DNA from: an uncultured Oscillospiraceae bacterium | GTDB lineage: Bacteria > Bacillota > Clostridia > Oscillospirales > Acutalibacteraceae | DNA: 64,000 nt | Reading direction: 5' to 3' | Assembly (NCBI GenBank): GCA_959601025.1 | Contig: CAUGOD010000002.1 | Coordinates: 6,173 to 70,172 of the forward strand | Part shown: in pieces, positions 13,737 through 64,000 of the stretch | How the letters are laid out: every line of letters starts with the position of its first letter | Numbering within the stretch: the stretch's first letter is position 1 | Notes under the pieces: generated by a model | What the model was told of the DNA's origin: nothing | Seen by the model: the letters and a program-made list of their open reading frames with translations, nothing else | The model's database searches: none | Position numbers and translations under genes: made by a program

Positions 13737-16268
13737 TCAGCTCCTTTCGCTTATGTATTGCTGGGCCGGGATGGTGCGGCCGTCCGCCAGCGTCACATCG
13801 AAACGGTTGTAGTTGATGAGAATACGGGTTCCGCCCGCGTAGGTGGTCCGGACGACGCCCTCCGCCAGCCGTTCATGGCCGGTAATGGGCTGTCCCCAGC
13901 AGCCGTCCAGGGCTTCGGAAAGCCAGGCGTAGTCGTCGGCGATTTTCTGCTCGAGGTAGCGGTACTGGATGGCGTAGAAATCGCTGAAATCGGTGTTTCG
14001 CAGCTCTTCCGCGTTTTCGGCGCAGAGGAGGTAATAGGGGGCCGCGCCGTTTTCCAGCAGCCGGAGATAATCGTTCCGGTCGGCAAAATCCAGATTGATC
14101 CGCCCGCCGGTATACCGTACATAGCCGCTGAGCACCATGGCGGCAAAGGGAACGCTGTAGTCGGTGACGTCGTAATTGCTGGAGCTCAGCGGCAGGGACA
14201 GGAGAGAATCCGCCTGTACGGCGAAGGGGGCGATGCCGGTGGAAAGGATCAGGTTGTCGGTCGATTCCCGCAGCGCGGCAACCTGTTCCTCCAGCCGGAT
14301 CAGGGAGGTCTGCCGCTCCACCTCCCGTTTTTCGTTGTAGTCGCTGTTGACCTCCCGTCCGACGCTCCGCAGGGAAAGGCCGGTCAGTCCGGTATCCCTG
14401 AGCAGCCCGGACAGGGAAGCAAAGCCGGTCTCAATCCCCGCGGAATTCAGGATATAGGCGGGCAGCGCTTCGGCGTCGGCGCCGAAATAGGCGCGGTCGG
14501 CGGGGTAATACGCCCCCTGCTTCCGGCTGAGAAGCCGGGCGATCTGCCGGTTTCCCAGCCCGTCGAACAGCCCTTTGTCGTACGCATACTGTATTTCGGC
14601 GTCCAGCGCGTAGGAGACGCCCTTTTCCGTGAGGTAGCCGGCCAGCTCGGTCAGGCCCTTTTTTCCGCCCAGCCGGCCGGAGACCTCCGCCTTGTTGAGA
14701 TAGCCCTGCCGGTAACCGCCGTTCAGGCAGCCGCTCAGAATGATCTGGAGATTCCCTATGCCCTTGCCGAGCAGGCTGTCGACCAGCGCGCGGCCGTCCT
14801 CAAAGGAGGTGAGGATGAGCTGACGGCGGACGTTGAAACCCAGCACGTTTTTCTGGATGTCGGCTTCCCCCAGAAGGTTAACGTACAGCGGCAGGCCGCC
14901 CTCGTCATCCAGAGGGGCGCGGCCGCCCAGCAGCAGCTCCCGGTACAGCCCGGCCATCCCGTTGTAGGAGGCGTCCTCCCCGGTCAGGAAGTGGTAGGCC
15001 ACCCGGAATTCGCCGTCATAGCCTTCGGCCTGGTGGGTGACGAAATAGGAATCGGTGTTTTCCGTGGTGGACAGGGTGGCGATCTTCGCCTGCTGCAGAA
15101 CCGTGAAGGAAGCGCAGACCGAGGGAGGAACCGTATCGTCCCCGGGGGAGGCGTTCACCGTTGCCAGCGCGTCCCCGTCCTCGATCACCGCCAAATAGCC
15201 GTTGCCGTTATCCAGCGCGCAGCCGAAAATCGGAAAGATCGCCGTCTGGTCCCGGAAGGTGGTCTCGCCGGCGGCGATGGAACGGTCGGCGCCGTAGATT
15301 CCCACCGCGTACTCCTGCAGGTTGTTTTTCCCGTTGTAAAAGTTCATGATCGAGCCGGAGCCGTCCGGCAGCAGGAAATACCCGTCGGTTTCCCGGTCCG
15401 CCCGGCCGAAGTTGGGAAGGAGGCGGAGGGTTTCCAGCGGGAACTCCTCCGTCCAGGCGATTTCCTCGCAGGGAACGCGCACCCGCAGGGCGTCGCCCTC
15501 CAGCTCCAGGTAGAGGGAAACGCTGAACTGCGGCTCGGAGGCGGCGGCGAGCTCGCCGTTTTCCGCGTCGAGCGTCCGGTCCGCCTCGGTGTAGCCGGCG
15601 TTTCGCAGCGCGCTGTCCAGCTTGACTTTCACGCTCTTCTGCATGTTGGGGGTGAGGACATAGATGGGGCCGTCCTCCGCCAGCGGATATTCGGCGGCGG
15701 TCTTTTTTCGTTCCTCCCCCTCGTAATTGTTCAGGTCGATTTTGGAATACAGCTGCCGCATAAACCGCTGGTCGCCGGATTCCATCGCATCGTAAAATTT
15801 GAGGTAGCGCTCCTCGGTCAGAATAGCCGGCGCAAAGTACTGGGGTTCGATCTCCCCGAGGGAATACCGGAGCTTTACGCCGTTATCCAGCGGAATGATC
15901 TCATACTGTCCTTTTTTCACCGAATCGGTGTAGGAATTCATATACTGCGCCACACTGCCGGTCGCCATATAGGCCAGGGTAAAGGCCGCGTTATAGGAAT
16001 CCTGCTCGCCGTTTCCCGTTGTGGAGGACCAGACCCGCCCGGTCTCCTTGACCGTGACCCGGAAAGCGGTGGTATCCGGGTTTACCTCCAGCATGAGCGC
16101 GTCGGTTTCCGCCATTTTCTGAAAGTCGGGGGAAGCGACGTCGTTTTCCCTGGTTCCCTCAGCGATCAGGTCCAGCTCCCGCGGCGCCGCGGCCGTGCCC
16201 GAACAGCCGGTCAGCAGCAGGCCAGCGCAGAGCAGCAGGACCAGAGAAAGTGTCCCGAACCTTTTCAT
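13737..16268 (-). CDS. large lipoprotein (843 aa) of unknown function; paralog of 61773..>64000 (resembles proteins I recall as DUF5696, unverified)
   Basis: Start MKRFGTLSLVLLLCAGLLLTGCSG (lipobox) with RBS GGGAGAAAGG. Shares blocks with the cluster B paralog (YFLLPDGSGSIMNF vs YFLVPDGSGALIEF; FPIFG vs PVFGMKKG). Lies 25 nt downstream of the NHL/Yip1 gene. Confidence 0.7.
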   Translation of the reverse strand: MKRFGTLSLVLLLCAGLLLTGCSGTAAAPRELDLIAEGTRENDVASPDFQKMAETDALMLEVNPDTTAFRVTVKETGRVWSSTTGNGEQDSYNAAFTLAYMATGSVAQYMNSYTDSVKKGQYEIIPLDNGVKLRYSLGEIEPQYFAPAILTEERYLKFYDAMESGDQRFMRQLYSKIDLNNYEGEERKKTAAEYPLAEDGPIYVLTPNMQKSVKVKLDSALRNAGYTEADRTLDAENGELAAASEPQFSVSLYLELEGDALRVRVPCEEIAWTEEFPLETLRLLPNFGRADRETDGYFLLPDGSGSIMNFYNGKNNLQEYAVGIYGADRSIAAGETTFRDQTAIFPIFGCALDNGNGYLAVIEDGDALATVNASPGDDTVPPSVCASFTVLQQAKIATLSTTENTDSYFVTHQAEGYDGEFRVAYHFLTGEDASYNGMAGLYRELLLGGRAPLDDEGGLPLYVNLLGEADIQKNVLGFNVRRQLILTSFEDGRALVDSLLGKGIGNLQIILSGCLNGGYRQGYLNKAEVSGRLGGKKGLTELAGYLTEKGVSYALDAEIQYAYDKGLFDGLGNRQIARLLSRKQGAYYPADRAYFGADAEALPAYILNSAGIETGFASLSGLLRDTGLTGLSLRSVGREVNSDYNEKREVERQTSLIRLEEQVAALRESTDNLILSTGIAPFAVQADSLLSLPLSSSNYDVTDYSVPFAAMVLSGYVRYTGGRINLDFADRNDYLRLLENGAAPYYLLCAENAEELRNTDFSDFYAIQYRYLEQKIADDYAWLSEALDGCWGQPITGHERLAEGVVRTTYAGGTRILINYNRFDVTLADGRTIPAQQYISERS

Positions 16269-16293
16269 ACCGTCATCCTTTCTCCCGTCTTGC

Positions 16294-18426
16294 TTACAGG
16301 CGCATGGAAATTTCCGTTTGCAGGTCGCTGATGAAGGAAACAAACTGATTGGCCAGCGCAAAGGCCAGCACCGCCAAAAACAGGACGATCACCATCACCA
16401 GCAGGGTGATGAGAATGACCAGCAGGGTCTTCCCCATCGTGTAATCGTGAATCTGCCGGTTGGCGCAGATGACCAGCGCGATCGTCCAGCAGAAGGCCAG
16501 CGTCACCAGGAAGAGGAAGAAGTCGCCTTCGTCCTCCACCAGCACGTTGCTGAACAGGGTGGCGATCGGAAGAAGGATCACCAGCGGGGTCAGCGCGTAG
16601 GAGGAGGCCATAAAGATATCCCGGAAGCTCCCTTCGCCGTTCATCAGGGAGGTGACGCACCAGTTGCAGGCGCAGAACAGAAGCAGCGGGCCGGCCACCT
16701 TCATCGCTTCCAGCAGAAGGTTCACCTCGTCCGCGCTGGAGGAGCCGAAGGGGAAGCCGATGAACCGGCTGTAAACCGCCATAGCCGCGCAGGCCAGGGC
16801 GAGCAGCGTGACCGCCGCCTTCATGCTCCCCCGTTTCTCGCATTTCAGGTCCCAAAACCCGTCGAAGGGGTGGAAGATGACATACCGGGAATACCGGAGG
16901 GTACCGCGGTAGCTGTCGGCGGCGACCGGCCGAGCGGGATGGCGCTTCCGCCATCGGGAGAATACGAACCCGACCGCGCAGAGGACGACAAGCCCGGTCA
17001 TCACATAGGGGAAAACGTCCCCCATGGTTTCCATCCGGACCATTTTGAAGGCGGAAGAATAGTTGGAGCGGTCCTCCGCCAGCCGGAAATAGCGCAGGGC
17101 CTCCGAAAAGTTCTTGTTCCGGTAAGCGGCCTTTCCCAGCCCGCTGAGGGCGCTCGCGCTGTTGATATTCTGCCGGGCGATTTCCGCCCACAGCGCCGCC
17201 TCCTCATCGTACAGGCTCTGGTAGTGGCAGCGGGCGGTATCGTACAGCTTCTGCCCGTAATCACTCATGGCGTAGACCGTCAGGCTCATCTTGCCGGAAT
17301 CCAGCACATAGAACCGCCCGTCCCGGTATTCCAGGGCGGTGGGAACCTGCAGGCCGCCCTTGACGCTGCCCGGCGAGCCGAATTCAAACAGCAGCTCCCC
17401 GTCGGCGTTGTATACGAAGGCGCGGCACCGGTTGGAATCCAGCACGGCGTACATGCCGTATCCCATGGTGCACACATCCACCAGCGAGGACGCGCCGCGG
17501 TAGGAGCCGGTCGCCATCACCTTGGGGTCGCCGTACGGCTTGACCGCGCCGGTCGTCCGCAGAATATCGTTTCCCTTGGCGTTCAGCTTCCGTACAGGGC
17601 TGGCGGTTCCCGCCGAATATTCGGCGGGGGTGTAGCTGTTGCTGGTGACATAGATGAAATCGTCCTCGTCGATGTTGATATTGTTGTACTCCGTCGGGAC
17701 GAAGGAGGCCATCCGTTCGATCATCTCGTCGGTGGAGATCATCCGCAGGAAATAATCCCACGGGGTCACGGTCACGGCGTTTGCGCCGAGGCAGCCGACG
17801 AAATCGCCGTTTTTATCCATCTCGATCAGGCCCATGTTGAAGCCGGAGGAGGTGACAAAAATCCGCCCGGCCGTGTCCACCAGCACCTTGGTGGGCTTAT
17901 AGTCAAAGGTATCCGGCAGCGAGCTGGATTCCGGCGCGGCCAGAATACGGAGCAGCCGGTCTTCCCGGTCAAGCACCACGATCCGGGCGTTGTTGGTGTC
18001 CGCCACATAGATGCCGGTTTCGTGGATATAGATGCCCTGCGGCTTCTGAAAGGTGAGGGCTTCCTCCCCGTTCGAAACCGAAGCGATTTCCCGCACGAAT
18101 CTCCATTCCCGATCCACGATCACGATACGGTTGTTGTCGGTATCGACGATATAGATGTCGCCGTTTTCATCCACAAAGAGGTCGGAGGGATTCGCCAGGT
18201 TGGCCGTCCCCAGGGCGACGCCGGTCAGCACCACGTCCGCCGTCACGGCGTCCGGGGCGGCGACCACATTGCCGTCGTTGTCGTAGGTGTAGCTGTAGAA
18301 GGCCCCTTCCGCCGCGGCGGGCAGCGCAGCCGGCAGCAGGAAAAGAGCGGCGAGAAGAGAGGTAAGAGAGGTAAACAGTCCAATCAAGGGGGCTTTTCGT
18401 TTCAATCCAATTCCCTCCGCCCGCAT
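16294..18426 (-). CDS. NHL-repeat beta-propeller / TPR-like / Yip1-domain multipass membrane protein
   Basis: Signal peptide …LLAALFLLPAALPAAAEG. NHL-type repeats (DIYIVDTDNNRIVIVD, GIYVADTNNARIVVLD, GRFYVLDSGKMSLTVY). Helical region (…YFRLAEDRSNYSSAFK). C-terminal ~250 aa with 5+ TM helices typical of Yip1/DUF1282 proteins. Its ATG overlaps the upstream permease stop as TAATG (18424-18428); an alternative TTG at codon 8 has a GGAGGGA RBS. Confidence 0.75.
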   Translation of the reverse strand: MRAEGIGLKRKAPLIGLFTSLTSLLAALFLLPAALPAAAEGAFYSYTYDNDGNVVAAPDAVTADVVLTGVALGTANLANPSDLFVDENGDIYIVDTDNNRIVIVDREWRFVREIASVSNGEEALTFQKPQGIYIHETGIYVADTNNARIVVLDREDRLLRILAAPESSSLPDTFDYKPTKVLVDTAGRIFVTSSGFNMGLIEMDKNGDFVGCLGANAVTVTPWDYFLRMISTDEMIERMASFVPTEYNNINIDEDDFIYVTSNSYTPAEYSAGTASPVRKLNAKGNDILRTTGAVKPYGDPKVMATGSYRGASSLVDVCTMGYGMYAVLDSNRCRAFVYNADGELLFEFGSPGSVKGGLQVPTALEYRDGRFYVLDSGKMSLTVYAMSDYGQKLYDTARCHYQSLYDEEAALWAEIARQNINSASALSGLGKAAYRNKNFSEALRYFRLAEDRSNYSSAFKMVRMETMGDVFPYVMTGLVVLCAVGFVFSRWRKRHPARPVAADSYRGTLRYSRYVIFHPFDGFWDLKCEKRGSMKAAVTLLALACAAMAVYSRFIGFPFGSSSADEVNLLLEAMKVAGPLLLFCACNWCVTSLMNGEGSFRDIFMASSYALTPLVILLPIATLFSNVLVEDEGDFFLFLVTLAFCWTIALVICANRQIHDYTMGKTLLVILITLLVMVIVLFLAVLAFALANQFVSFISDLQTEISMRL

Positions 18427-19334
18427 TATTCTTTAATCCCCGAGGAGGCCATTGTCTGCAGAATGTTGCTCTGTGCCAGCACAAACACGGCGATCGGCGG
18501 GATAATCAGGAGCAGCGTAACGGCGGAACCGGCTCCGGTGCGGGCGACGCCGCCGTTCATGATCTGATTCAACGCATAGTTGAGGGGCTTGAGCTCCTCG
18601 GAAAAGATATAGGTACCGCCCGTCGCGCCCCACATGCTCTGAAAGCCGAAGATAATCAGGGTCAGCCAGGCCGGCTTGACCAGCGGCATGGCAATCTGGA
18701 AGAAGATGCGCAGCTCCGACGCGCCGTCGATCCGCGCGGCCTCCAGCAGGCTGTCGGGGATGTTGCACATGAACTGCTTCATCAGGAACAGCCCGAGCGA
18801 GGAGGCGATGGCCGGCACGATCAGGGAAGCCAAAGTATTGACCCAGCCGAGCCGGCTCATGATGATGTAGCTGGGGATGGCGGTAACCGTCGGGGAGAAC
18901 ATCAGGGACAGCACCACCACCTTAAAAATGAATTCCCGTCCCGGGAACCGCCGCTTTTCCAGCACATAGGCGGCCAGAGAGGCGACGATCAGCTGGCCGG
19001 CGACGGTCAGCGCGGTGATCAGCAGGGTGTTGAAGAAGTAGCGGGACATGGGCACCCAGGATTCGCCCATCAGCACCGACAGGTTTTTGAAGTTGTTCAG
19101 GGTCGGGTTGCGGACGAAGAACTGGGGCGGGAACATGAACAGCTCATCCAGCGGCTTGAAAGCGCTGTTGGCGATATAGACCAGAGGGAGGGCCATGAAT
19201 GCGCCCACCAGGCAGAGCATCAGGAAATTCCCGACCCGCCCGGCACGGCTCCGTCCCACCCGATAACCGCCCAGGCGGTGCTTTTTCCGGCGGACGGTCA
19301 TGTCCCGCCGCTTTTTTGCGGCTTCGGTTGTCAT
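18426..19334 (-). CDS. carbohydrate ABC transporter permease (MalG-like)
   Basis: Start MTTEAAKKRR with GGGAGG RBS. Permease signature (…AARIDGASELRIFFQIAMPLVKPA…). Confidence 0.85.
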   Translation of the reverse strand: MTTEAAKKRRDMTVRRKKHRLGGYRVGRSRAGRVGNFLMLCLVGAFMALPLVYIANSAFKPLDELFMFPPQFFVRNPTLNNFKNLSVLMGESWVPMSRYFFNTLLITALTVAGQLIVASLAAYVLEKRRFPGREFIFKVVVLSLMFSPTVTAIPSYIIMSRLGWVNTLASLIVPAIASSLGLFLMKQFMCNIPDSLLEAARIDGASELRIFFQIAMPLVKPAWLTLIIFGFQSMWGATGGTYIFSEELKPLNYALNQIMNGGVARTGAGSAVTLLLIIPPIAVFVLAQSNILQTMASSGIKE

Positions 19335-19427
19335 CGTGCTCCTCCCTTCTTTCCCCAAAGGCGGAAAATAGAAATTTTTTTACCTTTTAGGCTTTTCAAT
19401 CTTATCAAACTACTAAAACTACCCAAA

Positions 19428-20375
19428 CTATACCCCTACTTTCCGCAGGAGTTTCTGCACCAGCGAGTTGCTGCCCACCATCATGATGAACAGAATGGTC
19501 GCAATGGCGCAGGCGTAGCCCATCTCAAAACGGACGCCGCCGTAATCGTTCATGTGGTTGAGGATGGTATGGGTGGCGTAATCGGTGCTGGGGCTGCCGA
19601 ACATCACATCGTGCATGGCGCCGCAGGAGAAGGCCGAGGAAATGGACATAACCGCGCCGAACATCAGCTGGGGACGCATCATCGGCAGGGTGATGAACCA
19701 CAGCTCCTGCCAGCGGTTGCGGATTCCCTCCACATACCCCGCCTCGTACATCGAGCGGTCCACCGTCTGGAAGCCCGCGACGAAGGAAAGAAAACCGGAG
19801 CCGAGGCTCATCCAAAGGGTAACCACGATGGCGACTCCCATCATGCAGTTGGTGTCGGTCAGCCACTGGATCGGCTCATTAAGGAAGCCCAGATTCATCA
19901 GCACGCCGTTCAGATAGCCGTAGGCATCGCCGCTGAACAGCACCTTCCAGATCATGTACGCACCGCCGCAGATGGAGGGAGCGTACATAACGGTGACCAT
20001 CAGCGCCCGCAGGGGGGCGGACAGCTCGTTGATGCACCAAGCCATCAGCAGGGAAAGCAGATACCCCGCCGGTCCGGTGATCAGCGCGATCAGGAGGGTG
20101 TTTTTCAGCGCGGTAGTGAACACGCTGTCCGAAACGAAGAGGTTCAGGTAGTTCTGCCAGCCAATGAACTGGGGCGGCTGCAGCACGTTGTAATAGGTGA
20201 AGCTGTAGTAAATGGACATCAGAACCGGCGCGATGACGAACAGCGAGAAGATCGCCAGAAAGGGCAGCAGGAACACATAGCAATCCCAGTTTTTCGCCGC
20301 TTCCTTCCGCTTTTCGGCCAGGGAAGCCCGGCCCTTCGACGCACCGGTGGTTCCCGCCGTTCTTTTGTGCAACAT
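19428..20375 (-). CDS. sugar ABC transporter permease (MalF-like)
   Basis: Start MLHKRTAG… with RBS GAAAGGAAAGG. The track ORF is extended 85 codons upstream by high GC. Confidence 0.85.
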   Translation of the reverse strand: MLHKRTAGTTGASKGRASLAEKRKEAAKNWDCYVFLLPFLAIFSLFVIAPVLMSIYYSFTYYNVLQPPQFIGWQNYLNLFVSDSVFTTALKNTLLIALITGPAGYLLSLLMAWCINELSAPLRALMVTVMYAPSICGGAYMIWKVLFSGDAYGYLNGVLMNLGFLNEPIQWLTDTNCMMGVAIVVTLWMSLGSGFLSFVAGFQTVDRSMYEAGYVEGIRNRWQELWFITLPMMRPQLMFGAVMSISSAFSCGAMHDVMFGSPSTDYATHTILNHMNDYGGVRFEMGYACAIATILFIMMVGSNSLVQKLLRKVGV

Positions 20376-51920: not shown

Positions 51921-51969
51921 AAGAGCGGTCTCCCGTTCCCCCGCAAAGGATACGGGCACCGCTCTTTTT
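51921..51969 (+). terminator. Rho-independent terminator
   Basis: AGAGCGGT…(inner CCCGTTCCCCCGCAAAGGATACGGG)…ACCGCTCT followed by TTTTT. Confidence 0.6.
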
Positions 51970-52919: not shown

Positions 52920-52970
52920 GAGATTTTCCGCGGCATCGCCAGGAAATCCGTACAAAGTCGTACCGGAAAA

Positions 52971-53006
52971 CTCCGAGCCAACGTTCTGCTGGCTCGGAGT
53001 TTTTTC
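52971..53006 (+). terminator. Rho-independent terminator
   Basis: CTCCGAGCC-AACGTTCTGCT-GGCTCGGAG followed by TTTTTTC. Confidence 0.7.
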
Positions 53007-54557: not shown

Positions 54558-54558
54558 C

Positions 54559-54592
54559 CCGTTATCGGCTCGTTACCGGCCCGTCATCGGCC
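54559..54592. promoter_or_regulatory. three tandem ~11-12-bp direct repeats (CGTTATCGGCT / CGTTACCGGCC / CGTCATCGGCC) between the AraC gene and the cluster B SBP gene
   Basis: Read directly. Lies immediately after the AraC stop and ~45 nt before the SBP start. Confidence 0.3.
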
Positions 54593-54637
54593 GGCCCATC
54601 AACGATTGAGAAGCTTGGGAGTGAGACTGTGCGTAAT

Positions 54638-57562
54638 ATGAGCACCAATGGTTCCAAACGATGGAGAAGAATCCTCGCCGCCCTTGCGGCAGGTATGCTG
54701 CTGGTCTCGGCCGCGCCCTGGGGCGCTCTGGCGGAAAAGGCGGATAAAGCGGGCGAAACGGGAAGGCTGCCGGAGGCGGCGGAGGGCGCCGCTTCGGATA
54801 TTCCGGACTATTTCGGCTACACCCAGGTGCATGGAGAGCAGCCGCGGGCGAAGATGCCGGTCACCCTTCCGGCCAAGGAAGGCGCGCTTTCCGAAAACGA
54901 CGCGGAACGCCGGGCGGAGTACGAGGGAGAGACGGACGTTGCCATCCTTCAAAACGGCGGCTGGATCGAATGGAGCTTTACCTTATCGGAATCCGCCCTG
55001 TATACCCTGGATCTGCGGTATATCGCTCTTCCAGGGACTGGCCGCGACCTGAAAGCGGCATTCGCCCTGGATGGAGCGGCCCCCTTCTTTGGCGCGTCAG
55101 AGCTGGTGCTGAACCGCGTCTGGAAGGACGAGGAAAAGGGGGAGATGGCGCAGGATAAGCAGGGCAACGACCTGATTCCCAATCAGGTCGAGGTGTTTGA
55201 ATACCAGAACCTGCTGCTGACCGACAACTCGGGCTTCCTTTCCGGGGCCTTTGAGGTATATCTGGAGGCGGGAGAGCACACCATCCGTCTGACCAATAAC
55301 GACGATGCGATGGGCGTCGCCTCCCTGACACTGGCCGGGAAGGAGGAGCTCCCCTCCTACGCCGAGGTGAAGGCGGAATACGACGAGATGGGTTACCGGC
55401 CGGTGGGCGGGGCGTACGTCGAACAGCAGGCGGAAAAGACGGAAAAGAAGTCGAGCCAGATTCTGTATCCGGTGTACGACCACACCGAAGCCGCCACCGT
55501 CCCCAACGATCCGGCCAAAATCCGCCGGAATGTCATCGGCCAGTCCAACTGGTCGGATTCCGGCATGTGGATCACTTACCAGGTGGAGGCGCCGGAGGAG
55601 GGGCTTTACCTTCTTTCAATAAAATACCGGCAGAATTCTCAGCTGGGGATGTCCACCTACCGCAATATTTACGTCAACGGAGAAATTCCCTTCCGGGAAT
55701 TTGAGAACGTGTCCTTTCCCTTCAACTTCAACTGGCGGAACATGACTGTTTCCGACGCGGAGGGCAACCCCTGCTATGTCTACCTGAGGAAGGGGACGAA
55801 CGAGATCCGGCTGGAAGCGACGGTCGGCAAATGGACCGATATCCTGCAGGAGGTCAACGCCCTCAACACGGAGATGAACAACCTTTACCGCCGGATTATC
55901 GTGGTGACCAGCACCAGCCCGGACACCTACCGCGATTATCAGCTGGACGTGGAGATCGACGGGCTGGTGGATACGCTGCAGCGCCTGTCGGACTCCCTGT
56001 CCTCCCTGGCGGATACCTTTGACGCGGTCAACGGGGAAAAATCCACCCAGTCCGAAACCCTTCGCCGGGTGGCGGAGCAGCTCCAGAGCTTTGCGGAGGA
56101 CCCGGACGAGATTCCGTCCCGTCTGGGAAATTTCCGGGATAATATCGGCACCATTTCCACCTGGCTGCTGAACAATGTGAAGCAGCCGCTGGAGATTGAT
56201 TACTTCGTGTTCCGCTCCACGGATCAGGAGCTTCCCGCCGCAAAGGCCGGCTTCTTCCAGAGTCTCTGGTTCGGGGTGCGGCAGTTCTTGGCGACCTTCA
56301 GCAGCGATTACAACAGCATGGATGACTGGGAGACGGACGAGGCGATTACGGTATGGTCGACCGACGGCCGAGACCAGGTGCAGGTGCTGAAGGACCTGAT
56401 TACCAACGAATTCACGCCCCAGACCGGTATCCGCGTCAATCTGAACGTGGTACAGACCGGCTTTATTGAAGCAACCCTCGCCGGGCTCGCTCCGGACGTC
56501 GGCATCGGCATGGCCCGCGGCCAGCCCGTCAACCTGGCCTGCCGCGGCGCGCTGGTGGACCTCAGCCAGTTTGATACCTTCGGCGAGGTGATGGCCCGCT
56601 TTTCGGAGGACGCGGCCGTACCCTATCAGTACGACGGCGCGACATACGCCCTGCCGGTTACCCAGCTTTTCTTCATGATGTTCTACCGCACCGATATTTT
56701 CGGGGAGCTGGGCTTGGCCGTTCCCCAGACCTGGGACGAGGTGGACGACGTGGTCGCGGTGCTCCAGCGGAAGAACATGACCATGGGCCTGCCTTATACC
56801 ACCGTTACCGCCCAGACGGCGGTGGATACCGGCGTAGGCGCGAAGGACCTGTTCTCCCTCCTCCTGCTCCAGTATGGCGGGACCTATTACAACGAGGATC
56901 AGACCGCCACCGCGCTGGATTCCCGCGTGGCGCTGGACGCGTTTAAGCGGTGGACGGGATACTATACCGAATTGGGCTTCGACCTGACCTACGATTTCAA
57001 CACCCGCTTCCGTACCGGCGAAATGCCCCTCGCCATCCAGAGCGTGGGTATGTACAGCACCCTGCAGGCCGCCGCTCCGGAAATCCGGGGACAGTGGGCG
57101 ATGGCGCCGGTTCCCGGCATCGAGCGGGGGGATGGGAGCATCGACCGCTCGGTCGGCGCTTCCGGCACGGCCGGCGTAATCTTTGAAAAGGCGGAAAACA
57201 AGGAGGCCTGCTGGAGGTTCCTCGACTGGTACACCAGCACCGAAACCCAGAAGGAGTTCGGCGCCCGGGTGGAAAACCTGCTCGGCCCGGCCGCCCGGTA
57301 TCAGACCGCCAACATCGAGGCCTTCAACGACCTGCCCTGGAGCAGCGCCGAACTGGAGAACCTCGAGTTTCAGCGGAGCTTTGTGAAGGAGATTCCGGAG
57401 GTTCCCGGCAGTTATTTCGTCGCCCGCTGTCTCGACAACGCTTTCCGCGACGTGTTGTACAGCAGTAAGAATCCCCGGACGGCGCTGGAGGCGGAAAACG
57501 AGAACATCAACCGGGAGCTCGAGCGCAAGCGTATCGAGCTGCGCTCCCGGAAAACGCGCTGA
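54638..57562 (+). CDS. giant extracellular solute-binding protein (cluster B paralog of 20414..23299)
   Basis: Start MSTNGSKRWRRILAALAAGMLLVSAAPWGALA (a GTG at 54629 is also possible). Same architecture and many shared blocks with the cluster A SBP (…YRDYQLD…, …QPLEIDY…, …FYRTDIFGELGLAVPQTWDEV…). Confidence 0.8.
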   Translation: MSTNGSKRWRRILAALAAGMLLVSAAPWGALAEKADKAGETGRLPEAAEGAASDIPDYFGYTQVHGEQPRAKMPVTLPAKEGALSENDAERRAEYEGETDVAILQNGGWIEWSFTLSESALYTLDLRYIALPGTGRDLKAAFALDGAAPFFGASELVLNRVWKDEEKGEMAQDKQGNDLIPNQVEVFEYQNLLLTDNSGFLSGAFEVYLEAGEHTIRLTNNDDAMGVASLTLAGKEELPSYAEVKAEYDEMGYRPVGGAYVEQQAEKTEKKSSQILYPVYDHTEAATVPNDPAKIRRNVIGQSNWSDSGMWITYQVEAPEEGLYLLSIKYRQNSQLGMSTYRNIYVNGEIPFREFENVSFPFNFNWRNMTVSDAEGNPCYVYLRKGTNEIRLEATVGKWTDILQEVNALNTEMNNLYRRIIVVTSTSPDTYRDYQLDVEIDGLVDTLQRLSDSLSSLADTFDAVNGEKSTQSETLRRVAEQLQSFAEDPDEIPSRLGNFRDNIGTISTWLLNNVKQPLEIDYFVFRSTDQELPAAKAGFFQSLWFGVRQFLATFSSDYNSMDDWETDEAITVWSTDGRDQVQVLKDLITNEFTPQTGIRVNLNVVQTGFIEATLAGLAPDVGIGMARGQPVNLACRGALVDLSQFDTFGEVMARFSEDAAVPYQYDGATYALPVTQLFFMMFYRTDIFGELGLAVPQTWDEVDDVVAVLQRKNMTMGLPYTTVTAQTAVDTGVGAKDLFSLLLLQYGGTYYNEDQTATALDSRVALDAFKRWTGYYTELGFDLTYDFNTRFRTGEMPLAIQSVGMYSTLQAAAPEIRGQWAMAPVPGIERGDGSIDRSVGASGTAGVIFEKAENKEACWRFLDWYTSTETQKEFGARVENLLGPAARYQTANIEAFNDLPWSSAELENLEFQRSFVKEIPEVPGSYFVARCLDNAFRDVLYSSKNPRTALEAENENINRELERKRIELRSRKTR

Positions 57563-57621
57563 AAACCAACGAAACAAAGCCGTTCGCCTGCCGGCGGACG
57601 GCGTGCGGGAAGGGCTTGATT

Positions 57622-58557
57622 ATGACTATGCACCATCTGCATCGGAGGAAACGCTATCCGCGCGGCTATCTTCGGCAGGAACTGAAAAGGGCCCGCGTCA
57701 GCTATCTGCTGATGGCGCCGTTTCTGTTTTTCTTTATCCTGCTTACGGTGATCCCGGTGCTGGCGTCCATCTTTTTCAGCTTTACCTATTTCAATATGCT
57801 GGAGCCGCCGACCTTCGTGGGCCTGATGAACTACGAGCGGATGTTCCTGGACGACGGCACCTTCCTGATTGTCCTGAAAAATACCCTGCTGTTCGCCTTT
57901 GTCACCGGGCCGATCAGCTACCTGATTTCCTTTTTCTGCGCGTGGCTGATCAATGAGTTCGGGCCGAAGCTCCGCTCGGTCTTCACCCTGGCGTTTTATG
58001 CGCCGGTGCTGACCGGCAATCTCTTCTTCATCTGGACCTACCTGTTCAGCGGCGACCAGTACGGCATCGTGAACAGCACCCTGATGAACCTGGGCATTCT
58101 GGGCGACCCGGTTCAGTGGCTTAGCGACCCGAAAACCGTGCTGCCCGTGCTGATGATTGTCCAGCTTTGGGCAAGCCTTGGCACCGGCTTTCTCGCCTTT
58201 ATCGCCGGGTTCCAGAGCATGGACAAAAGCCTGTTCGAAGCGGCTTCGATCGACGGGATCAAGAACCGCTGGCAGGAGCTGTGGTACGTCACCATCCCGT
58301 CGATGGCTCCCCAGCTGATGTTCTCCGCCGTGATGCAGATCGCCGCCTCCTTCGGCGTGCGGGAGATTATCCAGATGCTCGCCGGCTTCCCCACCACCCA
58401 GTACAGCGCCGACACCATCGTGACCTATATCCTCGATATCGGCACCGTGCGGTTTGAGATGGGATACGCCTCCGCGATCGCGGTGTTCCTGTTTCTGCTG
58501 ATGCTGCTGACCAATTTCATCATAACCCACGCGCTGAAGAGGTTCAGCGTGGATTGA
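57622..58557 (+). CDS. sugar ABC transporter permease (MalF-like), cluster B
   Basis: Start MTMHHLHRRKRY with RBS GGGAAGG. Paralog of 19428..20375. Confidence 0.85.
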   Translation: MTMHHLHRRKRYPRGYLRQELKRARVSYLLMAPFLFFFILLTVIPVLASIFFSFTYFNMLEPPTFVGLMNYERMFLDDGTFLIVLKNTLLFAFVTGPISYLISFFCAWLINEFGPKLRSVFTLAFYAPVLTGNLFFIWTYLFSGDQYGIVNSTLMNLGILGDPVQWLSDPKTVLPVLMIVQLWASLGTGFLAFIAGFQSMDKSLFEAASIDGIKNRWQELWYVTIPSMAPQLMFSAVMQIAASFGVREIIQMLAGFPTTQYSADTIVTYILDIGTVRFEMGYASAIAVFLFLLMLLTNFIITHALKRFSVD

Positions 58558-58622
58558 CGCCGCAGGCCCCTTCTCCGGCTGGATGGAGCGGGGCCGCCGA
58601 ATGAAACGCAAAGGGTGATTCT

Positions 58623-59480
58623 GTGACCAAGGGACTCTTTAAAAAGAACATCAATCGTTCGATAGGCGGCAATCTGCTGGTGTTTTTGGTTGTACTGCTC
58701 CTGGCATGCTTTATGCTGCTGCCGATTGTGTATGCCGTGAGCTCCGCTTTCAAGCCGCTGGATGAAATATTCATTTTTCCGCCGCGGATGTTCGTGCGCA
58801 AGCCCACGCTGGACAATTTCGTCCAGCTTGCGCAGATAACCAGCTCCTCCTGGGTTCCGCTCAGCCGGTACATATTCAACTCCCTGTTTGTCAGCGCGGC
58901 AGGCACCGTCGGCCATATGCTGATGGCCAGCATGGCGGCCTATCCGCTCGCCAAGCATCACTTCATCGGGCAGCGGACCATTTCCGGCGTGGTGAAGCTC
59001 TCCCTGCTGTTCACCTCGGCGGTCACGGCGATCCCGCAGTATATCGTGATGTCCAGCATCGGGATCGTCAATACCTACTGGGCGCTGATCTTTCCGGCTT
59101 TTCAGGCGGCGCTCGGCCTGTACCTGATGCAGAGCTTCATGGGCCAGATTCCGGAGGAGATGCTGGAGGCGGCCCGGATCGACGGCGCGGGCGAGCTGCG
59201 GATATTTTGGCGGATTGTGATGCCGAACGTCAAGCCCGCTTGGCTGACCGTGATTATTTTTTCCTTCCAGACGGTATGGAACAACGTCGGCTCCAGCGTG
59301 ATTTATGATGAAAAGATCAAGCTGCTGGGTTCCCTGTTGACCCAGGTGACGGCCGCCGGCACCGCCCGCGCGGGCGCGGGCGCGGCGCTGGGCCTGATCC
59401 TGATGATCCCGCCGATCCTGCTGTTCGTTCTCTCGCAGCGCCGGGTCATCGAAACCATGTCCACCTCGGGCATGAAGTAG
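58623..59480 (+). CDS. carbohydrate ABC transporter permease (MalG-like), cluster B
   Basis: GTG start with AAAGGG RBS. …AARIDGAGELRIFWRIVMPNVKPA… Paralog of 18426..19334. Confidence 0.85.
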   Translation: MTKGLFKKNINRSIGGNLLVFLVVLLLACFMLLPIVYAVSSAFKPLDEIFIFPPRMFVRKPTLDNFVQLAQITSSSWVPLSRYIFNSLFVSAAGTVGHMLMASMAAYPLAKHHFIGQRTISGVVKLSLLFTSAVTAIPQYIVMSSIGIVNTYWALIFPAFQAALGLYLMQSFMGQIPEEMLEAARIDGAGELRIFWRIVMPNVKPAWLTVIIFSFQTVWNNVGSSVIYDEKIKLLGSLLTQVTAAGTARAGAGAALGLILMIPPILLFVLSQRRVIETMSTSGMK

Positions 59481-59568
59481 GAGGGGCGCCCGTTCCCGTC
59501 CAGAATTTTGCGATCTTCGGGGCGAAACCGCCTCGTCAGAAAGCCGGAAAGGCGTGATTTGGATTACC

Positions 59569-61671
59569 ATGAAGGCGATGAAGAAAAAGCGGCGCGGCGC
59601 CGGCGGTCCAGCGCTGCTGGCGGCACTACTGGCCTCCCTGCTTTGTTTTCCCGGCGCGGCCGAGGGAACGTCTTTCAGCTATACCTACGATTACTGGAAG
59701 AATTCGGTGGAGGTTCCCACTCCCTATACGGCGGAAAAGCCGGTCACCGGCGAAGCACTGGGGCAGGGGAGTCTCAGCACGCCGCAGGACCTGTACGTTA
59801 CCAAAGCGGGAGATATATATATCCTCGATTCCGGCAACAGCCGGATCCTGAAGCTGGACGGCGCGCTTCAGTGTCAGGAGACGATCACCCTGAAAGACGC
59901 GGCCGGAACGCCGATTGAATTTCAGGATGCGCAGGGAATTTTTGTCGAGGAGAGCGGGCGGCTTTATGTGGCGGACAAAAAGGCCCGGACGGTATATGTC
60001 GCGGAAAGCGGCGGCTCGGTCGTTCAGCAGATCGGCGCGCCCCCGGCCGACAAGGTGACCGACGATTTCGACTATACCCCCGCGAAGGTGGCGGTGAATT
60101 CGGCCGGCATTATCTATGTGATTTCCGCCAACACCTATTCCGGCGCGCTGATGTACGAGCCAAACGGCCAGTTCATCGGCTTCTATGGTGCGGAACGGGT
60201 GGCGGTTACGCCGCAGCTGCTGCTCCAGCGCTTCTGGAAAAGCATTCTGAGCGAGGAAGCGGCCTCCGGTATTATGCGGAGCGTTCCGACCTCCTTCATC
60301 AACTTTGACCTGGACGACGGCAATTTCGTGTACACCATCAAGGGCGGCACGGCCCGCGGGGTCGGCCAGGTCCGGAAGCTGAATTCCCTTGGCGAGAACA
60401 TCCTGTTCAACGAGGAGGGGGCGCAGGCGGCCTTTGGGGACCTCGACACCTATTACGACAACCAGACCAACAGCGATATCACCACCACCCTCAACGACAT
60501 TTCGGTGGATGAGGACGGCTTCATCACTGTGACCGACAGCACCCGGGCCAGGGTTTTCCAGTACGACCAGAACAGCAACCTGCTTTACGCCTTCGGCGGG
60601 CAGGCCAACCAGTACGGCACCTTCCAGTCCCCGGTGGCGGTGGATTCGGTCGGGGATCGGCTGCTGGTGCTGGACGCAGGGGCGAACTGCCTCCATGTGT
60701 TCACCCCCACCTCCTTTGGCGCGAACGTCCGCCGGGCTATCCTGCTGTACAACGACGGTCAGTATGAAGAAGCGCTGGAGCCGTGGGAAGCCATCCTGGC
60801 TGAGGACGCCAACTATGAGCTGGCCAACGTCGGCATGGGCAAAATCTACGAGCAGACCGGCGAGTACGACAAGGCGATGGAGTATTACCGCCGCGGCAAC
60901 TACCGTACGGGCTATTCCGATACCTTCAAGGAGGAACGGGCGGATTTCATCCGCGGAGCCTTCCCGGTCATTCTGGCTCTGATCGTTCTGCTGGTGCTCG
61001 GCATGGTGCTCTATACCCGCTATAAAGAGAAGCGCCGGAAGAGCGATTATGAAGTCACCTTCAGCAAATGGCGGTACCCTTTCCAGGTCAGCCTGCATCC
61101 TTTCAAGTCGTATTACGATCTGAAGGTGGAGAAGAAGGGCTCTGTCCTGATGGCGAACCTGATCGTTTTCGCCTTTTTTGTCACCAGCATTGTCCACAGC
61201 CAGCTGACCGGCTTCCATTTCAACGAAAACCGCACCGACCAGTTCAATGTCTTCGTATCCCTGGCGACTACCGTCGGCGTGTTCGTCGTCTGGGTGGTGT
61301 GTAACTGGGCGGTCAGCACCCTGGCCGACGGCGAAGGAACCTTTAAGGAAATTTGGATTTTCACGGCTTACGCGATCCTGCCCTATGTGATCGGCCTGAT
61401 CGTCCTGACGGTCCTCAGCAACGCCTTCACGCTGGAGGAAGCGAGCTTCTATCAAATCGCGCAGGCGATCGTATATATCTGGACCGGCGCGAACCTGCTG
61501 ATGGCGACCCGGGAGGTCCACCAGTATTCGATGGCGAAAACCATTGCGATCATGCTGGGTACCCTGCTGGGAATTTTCCTGGTGCTGCTTTTCGTAACCA
61601 TCGCCTACAGCATGTTTACCCAGCTGGTCAGCTTTATCGGTATGATTTATAACGAAATCCGCCTGAAATAG
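59569..61671 (+). CDS. NHL-repeat / Yip1-domain membrane protein, cluster B paralog
   Basis: Signal peptide MKAMKKKRRGAGGPALLAALLASLLCFPGAAEG. NHL-type repeats (DIYILDSGNSRILKLD, RLYVADKKARTVYVAE). C-terminal Yip1-like TM bundle. Start uncertain (GTG 59554 / ATG 59569 / ATG 59578). Confidence 0.75.
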   Translation: MKAMKKKRRGAGGPALLAALLASLLCFPGAAEGTSFSYTYDYWKNSVEVPTPYTAEKPVTGEALGQGSLSTPQDLYVTKAGDIYILDSGNSRILKLDGALQCQETITLKDAAGTPIEFQDAQGIFVEESGRLYVADKKARTVYVAESGGSVVQQIGAPPADKVTDDFDYTPAKVAVNSAGIIYVISANTYSGALMYEPNGQFIGFYGAERVAVTPQLLLQRFWKSILSEEAASGIMRSVPTSFINFDLDDGNFVYTIKGGTARGVGQVRKLNSLGENILFNEEGAQAAFGDLDTYYDNQTNSDITTTLNDISVDEDGFITVTDSTRARVFQYDQNSNLLYAFGGQANQYGTFQSPVAVDSVGDRLLVLDAGANCLHVFTPTSFGANVRRAILLYNDGQYEEALEPWEAILAEDANYELANVGMGKIYEQTGEYDKAMEYYRRGNYRTGYSDTFKEERADFIRGAFPVILALIVLLVLGMVLYTRYKEKRRKSDYEVTFSKWRYPFQVSLHPFKSYYDLKVEKKGSVLMANLIVFAFFVTSIVHSQLTGFHFNENRTDQFNVFVSLATTVGVFVVWVVCNWAVSTLADGEGTFKEIWIFTAYAILPYVIGLIVLTVLSNAFTLEEASFYQIAQAIVYIWTGANLLMATREVHQYSMAKTIAIMLGTLLGIFLVLLFVTIAYSMFTQLVSFIGMIYNEIRLK

Positions 61672-61772
61672 CGGAGCGACGGGCGGACTCTCTCCGCCAA
61701 CCAGCGCGGGCGGCGTATCGCCCTTTTTCAAGAAGGATGTTCGTCCCAGCGGGCGGAAAATCCGGAAAGGAC

Positions 61773-64000
61773 ATGGATTTTGTTATGAAGAAAGGGAAAG
61801 TCATTCTGAGCGCCGCCGTTTCCCTGGCGGCGGTGGCGGCGATTGTCCTGCTGTTCATTACCATCGCCCGGCCGTCCCAGTCCGCCGGATCGGGGACGGG
61901 AGAGGGGGAGGGGACGAGCGGGACGAATATCCAGTTTACCCCCTCCAACAACCACGAGGACGGGTTCACGGTGGTGGCGGAAAACGCCTCTCTGCGGCTG
62001 AGCGCGAACATGAAGCAGGGGTATATCCGGCTGGAGGATAAGGAAAGCGGAGCGGTCTGGGACAGCTCTCCCGATGGTTACGACACGGACGAGAATTTGA
62101 AGGGCGCGGCCAAGGTGTCGCTCGGTTCCCTGCTGAACATCAAGTACGCCGACCGCGATTCCAATACCACCACCCAGAACGCCCGTGCGGGCGTAGTGCT
62201 CAAGGATAACCTGAACGCCGAACCGATTGCAAACGGCGTGCGGTTCGAGCTGTATTTTGAAAAGGAAGGCTTTCTGATCCCGGTGGAGATCACATTGGAG
62301 GAAACCGGCCTGAAGGTGAACGTCCCAATCCAGGAGATTGAGGAGGAGTCCGACGACCTGAAGCTGACCGGGATTATCCCGCTGCCGAACTTTGGTGCGG
62401 CCGGCGCGGAGGAGGAAGGCTACTTCCTTGTTCCGGACGGTTCGGGCGCGCTGATTGAATTCAATCAGCGCGGTTCCTTCGCCGAGTATTCGCAGGAAAT
62501 CTATGGCAGAGACCTCGCGGTGATTGACGCGACCCGGAAGACAAAGACACAGACCGCCCGTCTGCCGGTGTTCGGCATGAAGAAGGGAGATGCGGCGTTC
62601 CTGGCGATCATCACCGAGGGGGACGCCCGCGCGGCGGTGAACGCCGCGGTCCGCAGCAGCAAAAGCCCCTATAACGTGGGAAACGTGGAGTTTACCTATC
62701 GTGACAGCGCGACGGTGGAGGTCAGCCAGAAAACCTTTGAGTCCACCAAGGTGAATATGTTCGAACCCGCCCGCTCCCAGTTGGAGTCCTTTACGGTGGA
62801 ATACCGTTTCCTCAGCGGCGGGGAAGCCGATTATGTGGGGATGGCGCAGGCCTACCGGCGGTATCTTGCCGAGGAAGAAGGGGTGGAACCGGTGGAGACC
62901 GGGGAGACCACGCCGCTTACCCTGTCCCTGCTGGGCGGCGTGATGCGGCAGGAAAGCGTGCTCGGCATCCCGGTCAACCAGGTGGCGCCGATCACCTCTT
63001 ACGAGGACGTCCGTACCCTGGCTCAGACCCTGCTTGACAGCGGGGTGAAGGACGTGACCTTCCAGTACCTCAGCTGGGGAAAGGGTGGAACTCAGAACCG
63101 CATCCCGGTCGGTCTCTCGGCCGAGGGAGGGCTCGGCGGCATGAGCCAGCTGAAAAAGACCCTCTCTCTGCTTCAGGAAAACGGCATGGAGATGTATCTG
63201 GACGTCAACCTCACCGACATCCAAAAAAGCATCTGGGGCTTCAACGGAAATTATGATTCCGCCAAGTCGGTGCAGAAGGAACCGGCTATCGAATACCAGT
63301 ACAAGATGAGCACCTTTCAGCAGGATTCGCTGGGGACCATGACCTTCCTGCTCAGTCCGCGGAAGATTCTGGAGGCCAGCCAAAGGATCGCGGCCAAAGC
63401 GCAGAAGCTGGAATTCGCCGGTTTTTCCGCCGCCACCCTTTCGGAGAAGATGTATTCCGATTTCGGCGACAGCCACGTTGATCGGGGCAGCGGGGAAGCG
63501 ATCTGGCGGCAGGCGATGGAAAATCTGGCGGGGGCGAAGGGGGCGCTGATGGCGTCCGAGCCGAACGCCTACGCCTTTTCGAGCGCTACGCTGCTCACCG
63601 ACGTACCGATCGATACCAGCGACTTCACGGCCCAGACCGAGGCGGTCCCCTTCTACCAGATCGCCCTGCACGGGCTGATCCCGATGACCACGCCGTCGGT
63701 GAACAGTTTCACCGACGAACGGTTCTGCGTGCTGAAGGCGGTGGAAACCGGCATCGGCCTGAAATACACGCTGGGGATGCAAAACATTGAAAAGCTGCGG
63801 GAAACCGACGCGGCCGGCCTGTATTATATTGATGCAAAGAGGTGGACGGAACAGGCGATCGACGATTACAAAGAGGTGTCCGCCGTCATCTCCCGCTTTG
63901 CCGGGGAGGAAATCCGGAACCACGAGAAGCTGGCGGACGGCGTTTACAGGACCACCTTTGAATCCGGCGCGGTGGTCGTCAATTATACCGATGCGGACGT
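61773..64000 (+). CDS. large membrane-anchored protein, paralog of 13737..16268 (3' end beyond window)
   Basis: Manual translation MDFVMKKGKVILSAAVSLAAVAAIVLLFITIARP… (N-terminal signal anchor) continues open to 64000. Not in the ORF track because it runs off the end. The 61728..63923(-) track ORF is its antisense. Start 61773 or 61785. Confidence 0.7.
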   Translation, partial: MDFVMKKGKVILSAAVSLAAVAAIVLLFITIARPSQSAGSGTGEGEGTSGTNIQFTPSNNHEDGFTVVAENASLRLSANMKQGYIRLEDKESGAVWDSSPDGYDTDENLKGAAKVSLGSLLNIKYADRDSNTTTQNARAGVVLKDNLNAEPIANGVRFELYFEKEGFLIPVEITLEETGLKVNVPIQEIEEESDDLKLTGIIPLPNFGAAGAEEEGYFLVPDGSGALIEFNQRGSFAEYSQEIYGRDLAVIDATRKTKTQTARLPVFGMKKGDAAFLAIITEGDARAAVNAAVRSSKSPYNVGNVEFTYRDSATVEVSQKTFESTKVNMFEPARSQLESFTVEYRFLSGGEADYVGMAQAYRRYLAEEEGVEPVETGETTPLTLSLLGGVMRQESVLGIPVNQVAPITSYEDVRTLAQTLLDSGVKDVTFQYLSWGKGGTQNRIPVGLSAEGGLGGMSQLKKTLSLLQENGMEMYLDVNLTDIQKSIWGFNGNYDSAKSVQKEPAIEYQYKMSTFQQDSLGTMTFLLSPRKILEASQRIAAKAQKLEFAGFSAATLSEKMYSDFGDSHVDRGSGEAIWRQAMENLAGAKGALMASEPNAYAFSSATLLTDVPIDTSDFTAQTEAVPFYQIALHGLIPMTTPSVNSFTDERFCVLKAVETGIGLKYTLGMQNIEKLRETDAAGLYYIDAKRWTEQAIDDYKEVSAVISRFAGEEIRNHEKLADGVYRTTFESGAVVVNYTDAD

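Follow-up and report, generated by a model that had tools for sequence, protein, structure and literature searches.

What is the gene cassette that occurs twice, in inverted orientation, in a 64,000-nucleotide stretch of contig CAUGOD010000002.1 from an uncultured Oscillospiraceae bacterium (hereafter the window), and is it one functional system or a gathering of separate transporter and surface-protein genes? Cluster A, on the minus strand, and cluster B, on the plus strand, have an identical gene order in opposite orientation. Each encodes a giant substrate-binding protein (SBP; A1/B1), a first pair of MalF- and MalG-type permeases (pair 1; A2/B2 and A3/B3), a membrane protein with NHL, TPR and Yip1 domains (A4/B4), a DUF5696 protein (A5/B5), a second permease pair (pair 2; A6 and A7 in cluster A) and a conventional SBP (A8 in cluster A). 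Surface polysaccharide capture in Gram-positive gut and soil bacteria is much less understood than the Sus paradigm of Bacteroidota. Our analysis indicates that each copy is probably the operon for a conserved Gram-positive glycan capture-and-import apparatus with an invariant seven-gene core.

The genes of the window, which has a G+C content of ~60%, were chosen by codon-position G+C and then checked against Pfam. Cluster B beyond the window end was read from two public contigs, L087 and L088, that are 100% identical to window positions 49569-64000. The coordinates, order and strands of the two copies are as an earlier note on this DNA had described them, and every Pfam family predicted there (SBP_bac_1, BPD_transp_1, NHL, Yip1 and DUF5696) was found. 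The note had also placed a tRNA, bio and rnf island between the copies; BioB, BioY, BirA, the rnf genes and tRNA-Met, tRNA-Glu and tRNA-Val are indeed present, and the island also holds MnmA and NadA.

All five protein pairs of clusters A and B align colinearly, and their resemblance is far beyond chance. In blastp comparisons, the giant SBPs are 41% identical over 924 aa (E = 0), the F permeases of pair 1 47% (E 9e-108), the G permeases 53% (E 6e-96), the NHL/Yip1 proteins 31% over 682 aa (E 3e-115) and the DUF5696 proteins 28% over 670 aa (E 1e-59). The expected range of 30-60% identity was therefore borne out by four pairs (31-53%), while the DUF5696 pair falls just under it. Between the clusters, the permeases of pair 2 are 32% and 34% identical (34% for A7 and its B counterpart) and the small SBPs ~30%, so that the module of giant SBP and pair 1 (41%, 47% and 53%) is more conserved than the remaining parts of the cassette. 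The exact sequence of B4 was found in 22 public contigs.

The earlier note had treated the cassette as a five-gene unit. This five-gene order is real, but the unit runs on past DUF5696: the conserved unit comprises seven genes, to which the conventional SBP may be added as an eighth, and it includes the second permease pair. Its core order is giant SBP, permease, permease, NHL/TPR/Yip1, DUF5696, permease, permease. Loci were collected by a DUF5696-profile scan with one genome per species, which gave 80 loci whose open reading frames (ORFs) were annotated with the window proteins; the giant SBP, the NHL/Yip1 protein and one distant DUF5696 homolog served as further seeds. Of the 57 loci with enough flanking sequence, 56 have the giant SBP, two permeases and NHL/Yip1 ahead of DUF5696; the single exception has a split permease. 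The second permease pair lies downstream of DUF5696 in 67 of 71 loci; it is missing in L074, L075 and L080, and L038 has permease F2 only at this position. L074, L075 and L080 are metagenome-assembled genomes (MAGs) of Acutalibacteraceae with B-type cassettes that stop after DUF5696, with no pair 2 in the 8-10 kb downstream, and represent a natural five-gene form. Roughly two-thirds of complete loci have a conventional SBP no more than 10 kb away, which follows pair 2 or precedes the giant SBP (in the first scan, 22 of 80 downstream and 14 of 80 upstream). In 15 of the 80 loci the NHL/TPR and Yip1 parts are separate genes, with the break in the predicted cytoplasmic loop.

The other seeds gave the same picture. 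Giant-SBP seeds in Butyrivibrio sp. LC3010, Alkalihalobacillus trypoxylicola and an Acholeplasmataceae MAG led to the same seven-gene core, two distant NHL/Yip1 homologs also lie inside it, and the distant DUF5696 homolog, on a short contig, is accompanied by at least the five upstream genes. Consistent with the expectation that the neighborhood would be conserved elsewhere, it recurs in ~90 independent loci seeded from three different components. The core was found in Clostridia, in Bacilli, in one Acholeplasmataceae MAG and in one Dictyoglomota MAG, and its hosts include gut Oscillospiraceae, Ruminococcaceae and Acutalibacteraceae MAGs as well as Lachnospiraceae, Paenibacillus, Bacillus relatives and Mageeibacillus. 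Core synteny is near-universal across Bacillota, with co-directional, tightly packed genes. For the variety of flanking genes we relied on called genes; stop-to-stop ORFs in GC-rich genomes pick wrong-strand shadow ORFs. When cluster A was scanned for promoters and terminators, about as many were counted as in shuffled sequence.

This conservation bears on whether the locus could hold two ordinary, independent CUT1 importers that happen to neighbor unrelated surface proteins, the repeat being a duplicated segment. Each permease pair with an SBP would form a complete conventional importer, and sugar ABC operons are very often clustered (PMC5320581). Such a chance arrangement is very improbable, given that order and content are kept in the ~90 loci across lineages while the flanks change completely, that every sampled homolog of the NHL/Yip1 protein, the giant SBP or DUF5696 was found in cassette context, and that the genes abut or overlap.

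Genomes of gut Oscillospiraceae, Ruminococcaceae and Acutalibacteraceae hold the cassette in multiple copies; in several MAGs there are three to four or more paralogs, as is typical of polysaccharide utilization loci. In L002 and L003 (1-393, 2929-12538), a second DUF5696 gene (841 aa) ends ~2.5 kb upstream of the next giant SBP. Since a DUF5696 gene precedes the next cassette there, cassettes also occur in tandem in other genomes.

The earlier note had given no name for this type of cluster, and we found no description of the fixed multi-component core in the searchable literature. Within that literature, whose coverage excludes subscription journals, there was no mention of DUF5696 (PF18952) and nothing relevant on Yip1 in combination with polysaccharide utilization loci, SBPs, permeases or glycoside hydrolases (GHs). 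NCBIfam has no family for the giant SBP, for DUF5696 or for A9, a surface protein of cluster A.

The giant SBP is 950-1020 aa long, and Pfam places SBP_bac_1/8 in A1 at residues 597-866 only, that is, in the C-terminal third. An AlphaFold2 (AF2) model of A1 (predicted local distance difference test, pLDDT, 87.6) shows an N-terminal hydrophobic helix that may be a signal or an anchor, two beta-sandwiches at ~70-232 and ~259-392, a four-helix bundle at 396-512 and a MalE-like SBP domain at 516-957. The two N-terminal beta-sandwich modules that had been proposed from the sequence are thus seen in the model. Foldseek searches with A1 matched only oligosaccharide SBPs, including MalE (E 1e-21 to 1e-18, TM 0.75-0.83). 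A profile of the N-terminal region matched the carbohydrate-binding module (CBM) CBM35 of CITase (5x7g, E 2e-7), with 2w47 and 2vzp at ~5e-3, and Pfam found Golvesin_C in 13 and CBM_35 in 10 of 14 giant SBP members. The two N-terminal beta-sandwiches are accordingly modeled as CBM35/CBM6-like. Normal Gram-positive SBPs carry a lipobox; most giant SBP members, A1 included, have none.

BPD_transp_1 was detected in A2, A3, A6, A7, B2, B3 and pair 2 of cluster B, and the best NCBIfam matches of A2, UgpA and GlcT, were below cut-off. Both permease pairs have EAA-type coupling loops, among them EAARIDGASELRIFFQIAMP in A3, EASYIEGATKWEVFWKICLP in A6 and that of A7; the EAA loop is the ATPase-docking motif. 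A1, B1, A8 and the 435-aa SBP of cluster B score above the SBP_bac_1/8 gathering score. Two features of a CUT1 importer, a MalE-fold SBP and a set of two EAA-bearing BPD_transp_1 permeases, are therefore present. The two pairs share only 22-25% identity (A6 vs A2 25%, A7 vs A3 23%), which argues that they are anciently distinct. A8 is presumed to partner pair 2.

A4 matches Yip1 (E 5e-16), NHL (E 5e-14) and, weakly, TPR in Pfam. With Yip1 scores of 59.5 bits for A4 and 66.5 bits for B4 against a cut-off of 28.6, both are assigned by gathering score to Yip1 (PF04893). The hydropathy profile of A4 has a signal-peptide segment at 13-31 and six transmembrane-length segments between residues 471 and 686; at the same threshold, five segments fall within the Yip1 domain of A4 and four within that of B4. 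The predicted layout of A4 is a signal peptide, an extracellular NHL beta-propeller, TPR, one transmembrane helix, a basic cytoplasmic loop and a C-terminal five-helix Yip1 domain. In the PDB its sequence matches NHL propellers, namely those of TRIM71, Thin and PknD. The YknWXYZ system of Bacillus subtilis also encodes a polytopic membrane protein of the Yip1 family as an accessory to an ABC transporter; there, however, the transporter YknYZ is an exporter of the MacB type, YknW lacks an NHL/TPR ectodomain and the context is not one of carbohydrates.

The fifth component belongs to a large family. A profile search over 1.84 billion cluster representatives (clusters at 50% identity) returned 7,004 DUF5696 proteins at E <= 1e-3, 5,437 at E <= 1e-10 and 3,994 at E <= 1e-30. 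A5 and B5 match DUF5696 in Pfam with E 4e-150 and 4e-172, the latter for B5. The earlier note had called this component a membrane-anchored protein of ~850 aa, which holds for the length of A5, but A5 is anchored as a lipoprotein and not by a transmembrane segment. A lipobox is present in ~33 of 39 DUF5696 members, and the N-terminus of B5 is a transmembrane or signal anchor.

The AF2 model of A5 (pLDDT 88.5) comprises an N-terminal beta-sandwich with a helical insert, a TIM barrel at ~436-760 and a C-terminal beta domain. The same three-domain fold is found in GH129 NagBb. In GH129 the catalytic nucleophile is an Asp (D435 in NagBb, D486 in DagB). The DUF5696 family profile reaches GH129-type proteins by sequence alone (E 4e-9 and 2e-6), with an identity to the solved GH129-type structures of only 15-17%, and a Pfam scan of the DUF5696 protein at E <= 0.01 returned DUF5696 only. 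By profile and model, DUF5696 is a remote GH129 homolog, to be regarded as a family of its own that is related to GH129. Its three-domain layout also matches that of GH129-like DagB as published, in which an Asp of the N-domain contributes to catalysis as well (PMC5698469).

Across 200 DUF5696 sequences, four acidic positions stand out. D303, in the near-invariant N-terminal-domain motif GYxLLPDGSG, is 96% conserved, D235 94%, D644 90% (Asn in 9%) and D704 88%, with Thr in B5. D644 and D704 were chosen as candidate acids from offsets and strand positions only; the barrel region, run as a sub-profile against PDB sequences, had none but spurious helical matches and gave no mapping of GH129 catalytic residues.

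These residues bear on whether DUF5696 is an enzyme at all. It could instead be a catalytically dead GH129-fold glycan receptor that acts as the binding protein for pair 2, in which case the cassette would consist of two tandem units of binding protein, permease F and permease G joined by the Yip1 scaffold gene. The position of DUF5696 in the SBP slot before pair 2 fits this idea, with gaps of 0-6 nt or an overlap (6 nt in the window between the A5 stop codon and the A6 start; likewise L001, L004, L091 and L092), as do its lipid anchor, shared with Gram-positive SBPs, and the candidate catalytic acids that are only 88-90% conserved, one being missing in B5. On the other hand, D303, D235, D644 and D704 together resemble an active-site constellation, the N-domain Asp has its catalytic precedent in DagB, and a conventional SBP is near in most loci. 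We know of no GH-fold protein that docks on a type I ABC importer. Overall, we consider the receptor role unlikely, though it is not a negligible alternative.

From domain content and genomic context, we infer a role in glycan capture and import. In this model, the two CBM35-like modules of the giant SBP would hold a polymeric glycan at the cell surface, lipid-tethered DUF5696 would trim or cleave the captured glycan, and the MalE-like domain of the giant SBP would pass oligosaccharides to permease pair 1. A second class of products would enter via pair 2 with the small SBP. The Yip1-anchored NHL/TPR ectodomain would act as a scaffold for the untethered giant SBP, the enzyme and both translocators, keeping them in one place, and a shared ATPase of the MsmX/MsiK type, encoded outside the cassette, would supply the energy. 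An extracytoplasmic location is predicted for all binding and enzyme-like parts. The earlier note had proposed a new multi-component glycan capture and import system; the conserved core supports the multi-component part, while the function is proposed from domains and context. A more speculative proposition is that the core also forms one physical surface machine, a Gram-positive counterpart of the Bacteroidota utilisome, in which the Yip1 helices and the NHL/TPR ectodomain would gather both translocators, the non-lipidated giant SBP and the lipid-anchored enzyme into a single complex, with DUF5696 founding a new GH129-related GH family. We regard this as less likely than not, though its chance is substantial.

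Several observations weigh against the capture-and-import interpretation. No acidic pair in the TIM barrel of DUF5696 is invariant, so that catalysis is only putative. About one third of complete loci (~20 of ~60) have no conventional SBP within 10 kb, which also favors DUF5696 as the binding protein of pair 2. No ABC_tran gene was found among the Pfam-scanned window genes or beside the cassette in the loci examined; the ABC_tran in L004-L006 belongs to an adjoining ABC-2 system on the opposite strand. The scaffold role of the NHL/TPR/Yip1 protein is one that we purely infer. Giant SBPs are 40-46% identical across classes, with 67 invariant columns, and such conservation is odd because many different substrates would be expected for this protein. 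Finally, the L094 core (ERZ28566519 scaffold_126, 4978-17067) has no carbohydrate-active enzyme (CAZyme), regulator or small SBP within 10 kb. This core stands among housekeeping genes for alanine racemase, ribosomal proteins S6 and S18 and SSB.

The last two points could suggest that the cassette recycles the envelope glycopolymers of the cell itself (peptidoglycan, teichoic acid or capsule) rather than external glycans: strong conservation of the giant SBP across classes would suggest a common ligand, and the L094 core lies among housekeeping genes with no CAZymes nearby. L092, moreover, has an Amidase_2 protein and NamZ, which belongs to an exo-MurNAc-ase family, as neighbors. Most copies, however, stand beside enzymes for plant or host glycans (GH10, GH43, GH98, GH32, GH76 and GH20) and AraC or LacI regulators, and single genomes hold three to four or more diverged paralogs. 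Flanks recorded elsewhere include GH10/GH43 in Butyrivibrio, GH76, GH20, SASA, GH32/43, and NamZ with an amidase, again with AraC or LacI regulators. Recycling of envelope polymers is thus very unlikely, and capture and import of external glycans remains our preferred reading.

Why, then, are there two copies? At the DNA level, what similarity is left between clusters A and B is confined to patches of 64-75% identity; the best of the inverted matches spans 162 nt (75%), and the longest exact stretch common to both is 22 nt. Components of A have 60-76% identical orthologs in L007, L008 and L009, and those of B have 50-69% identical orthologs in L065, L069 and L073, in each case with the same accessory genes; B1 itself is 57-58% identical to its orthologs in L073 and L065. 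Both A- and B-type copies are present in the MAGs MGYG-HGUT-04159 and MGYG-HGUT-00388. Because each type has its own orthologs in other species, and two MAGs carry both, the duplication predates those species, and the copies in the window are ancient paralogs. This agrees with the earlier proposal of an old duplication. A recent repeat or an assembly artifact was rejected, given DNA identity of at most 75% in patches of at most 162 nt, the 22-nt exact match and the separate orthologs. Inversion of the intervening island by homologous recombination, which had been suggested for the case of higher DNA identity, is not expected, since the longest exact shared DNA is so short.

The accessory genes of the two copies differ: cluster A has two GH98-like proteins and an 882-aa protein, cluster B a DUF4434 protein and two uncharacterized paralogs. 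As ancient paralogs with different accessory enzymes, the two copies probably serve different glycans. Specialization for different substrates had been proposed earlier, and the differing flanking enzymes fit it as indirect evidence.

Table 1. Positions of the genes of clusters A and B and of associated genes in the window
Feature	Position	Strand	Length, domain matches and remarks
882-aa protein, first gene of the A array	25385-28033	-	hydrophobic N- and C-terminal segments
GH98-like protein directly upstream of A1	23413-25200	-	Glyco_hydro_98M E 1.5e-10, 98C E 6.5e-5
A1 giant SBP	20414-23299	-	961 aa
A2 MalF-type permease, pair 1	19428-20357	-	BPD_transp_1 E 3e-11
A3 MalG-type permease, pair 1	18426-19358	-	BPD_transp_1 E 8e-14
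A4 NHL/TPR/Yip1 membrane protein	16294-18426	-	710 aa
A5 DUF5696 lipoprotein	13737-16268	-	843 aa
A6 MalF-type permease, pair 2	12837-13730	-	BPD_transp_1
A7 MalG-type permease, pair 2	11840-12805	-	BPD_transp_1 E 1e-11
A8 conventional lipoprotein SBP	10339-11811	-	~480 aa; SBP_bac_1/8; lipobox LGFTAC
A9 surface protein	9299-10264	-	321 aa; no Pfam match
GH98 protein, distal end of the A array	7255-9423	-	Glyco_hydro_98M E 1e-30, 98C E 1e-16
AraC-family regulator upstream of cluster A	28479-29321	-	HTH_18, AraC_binding
AraC-family regulator directly upstream of cluster B	53532-54557	+	HTH_18, AraC_binding, Cupin_2
B1 giant SBP, A1 paralog	54638-57562	+	SBP_bac_8 E 7e-24, CBM_6 weak
B2 permease F, pair 1	57622-58557	+	BPD_transp_1; gene call from identical contig L087
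B3 permease G, pair 1	58623-59480	+	BPD_transp_1; EAA loop
B4 NHL/TPR/Yip1 membrane protein	59569-61671	+	700 aa; Yip1 E 3.5e-18, NHL 2.8e-17, TPR
B5 DUF5696 protein	61773 to beyond 64000	+	cut by window end; full length 761 aa

Cluster A is part of a 13-gene co-directional array that runs from the 882-aa protein through the GH98-like protein and A1 to A9 to the GH98 protein (Table 1). AraC regulators lie on both sides of it, with a GH31 protein nearby. The GH98-like protein upstream of A1 is kept upstream of the cassette in L007 and L009. The distal GH98 protein, which has a lipoprotein-like N-terminus, and the 882-aa protein are both kept with A-type clusters in L007, L009, L010 and L012. 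The 882-aa protein has no Pfam, NCBIfam or PDB sequence match and may be an unrecognized carbohydrate-active or surface protein. A9 consists of a signal peptide, a ~200-aa domain, a Thr/Pro-rich linker and a C-terminal transmembrane anchor; with homologs at the same position in L001, L007 and L009-L012, it is an accessory of A-type clusters.

Downstream of B5, contigs L087 and L088 encode permeases of 313 and 317 aa, two uncharacterized proteins, the 435-aa lipoprotein SBP and the DUF4434 protein. The two uncharacterized proteins (L087 16486-17982 and 18073-19245) are paralogs of 498 and 390 aa that are 38% identical and have no Pfam match; a homolog of the 498-aa protein (Bu498) occurs in the orthologous loci L069 and L073.

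Some further genes of the window may be recorded here. At the distal end of the A locus, beside a normal AraC gene (3065-3988), a 1037-aa protein (4034-7147, minus strand) is an unusual regulator fusion, with an AraC-type HTH_18 domain at 212-288 and, after it, a long C-terminal region that has only a weak GDPD-like match. The far end of this locus (837-2814, minus strand) encodes a GFO/IDH/MocA oxidoreductase and a xylose-isomerase-like TIM-barrel protein, a pair that resembles sugar oxidation and isomerization side pathways and may point to the substrate. Between the genes for RnfC (38528-39910) and RnfD (40670-41623), the otherwise rnf-like operon of the island encodes a 224-aa protein with a SUFU (Suppressor of fused) domain (39941-40615, plus strand; Pfam E 1e-37). 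A 950-aa LPXTG-anchored protein (47295-50147, plus strand) with a calcineurin-like metallophosphoesterase, fn3 and Laminin_G_3 lies in a stretch of low G+C (~0.49-0.51 at 46-48 kb and 52-54 kb, compared with ~0.60 elsewhere).

How does the cassette relate to known systems? The locus falls under the definition of a Gram-positive polysaccharide utilization locus (gpPUL; Sheridan et al. 2016, PMC5320581). In cluster A, two GH98 proteins stand with ABC systems and AraC. Cluster B likewise combines ABC systems with AraC, and DUF4434 and DUF5696 are the sole candidates for an enzyme there. Like the CUT1 importers of gpPULs, the cassette has SBP_bac_1/8 proteins, MalF/MalG-like permeases with EAA loops and no ATPase gene in the operon, and it shares with gpPULs the glycoside hydrolase, AraC and LacI neighbors and the many paralogous loci per genome. 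It differs from them in its fixed seven-gene core with two permease pairs, in an SBP of 950-1020 aa with two CBM35-like modules and a four-helix bundle, and in the obligatory presence of the NHL/TPR/Yip1 and DUF5696 proteins. To our knowledge, these two proteins are part of no described gpPUL.

Among enzymes, the closest comparison is with GH129 and GH129-like proteins, namely the alpha-N-acetylgalactosaminidase NagBb (5WZN) and the 3,6-anhydro-D-galactosidase DagB of Zobellia (5OPQ). Besides its low identity to both (15-17%), the putative enzyme DUF5696 differs in being lipid-anchored, in lying in a transporter operon and in its variable barrel acidic pair. With the Sus-like polysaccharide utilization loci and utilisomes of Bacteroidota, the cassette has in common that glycan-binding modules for the cell surface are encoded together with a lipid-anchored protein resembling an enzyme and with a dedicated transporter, and that paralogous loci carry different accessory enzymes. 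In contrast to these, it is an ABC importer in a cell with one membrane, and its components have no sequence relationship to theirs; neither SusC, the TonB-dependent transporter, nor SusD was among the Pfam hits of the window genes or the locus neighbors examined.

Taken together, the cassette is a fixed, widely distributed module in which ABC importers are paired with three conserved components of which the searchable literature gives no description. If our interpretation is correct, the module would provide a recognizable marker for glycan-utilization loci in Bacillota. It would also give a function to a large domain family of unknown function, suggesting a new GH129-related family, and would represent the first nutrient-uptake role for bacterial NHL/Yip1 proteins. 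Its carriers include Butyrivibrio, Paenibacillus and Bacillus relatives, which would offer cultivable models in which the system could be tested.

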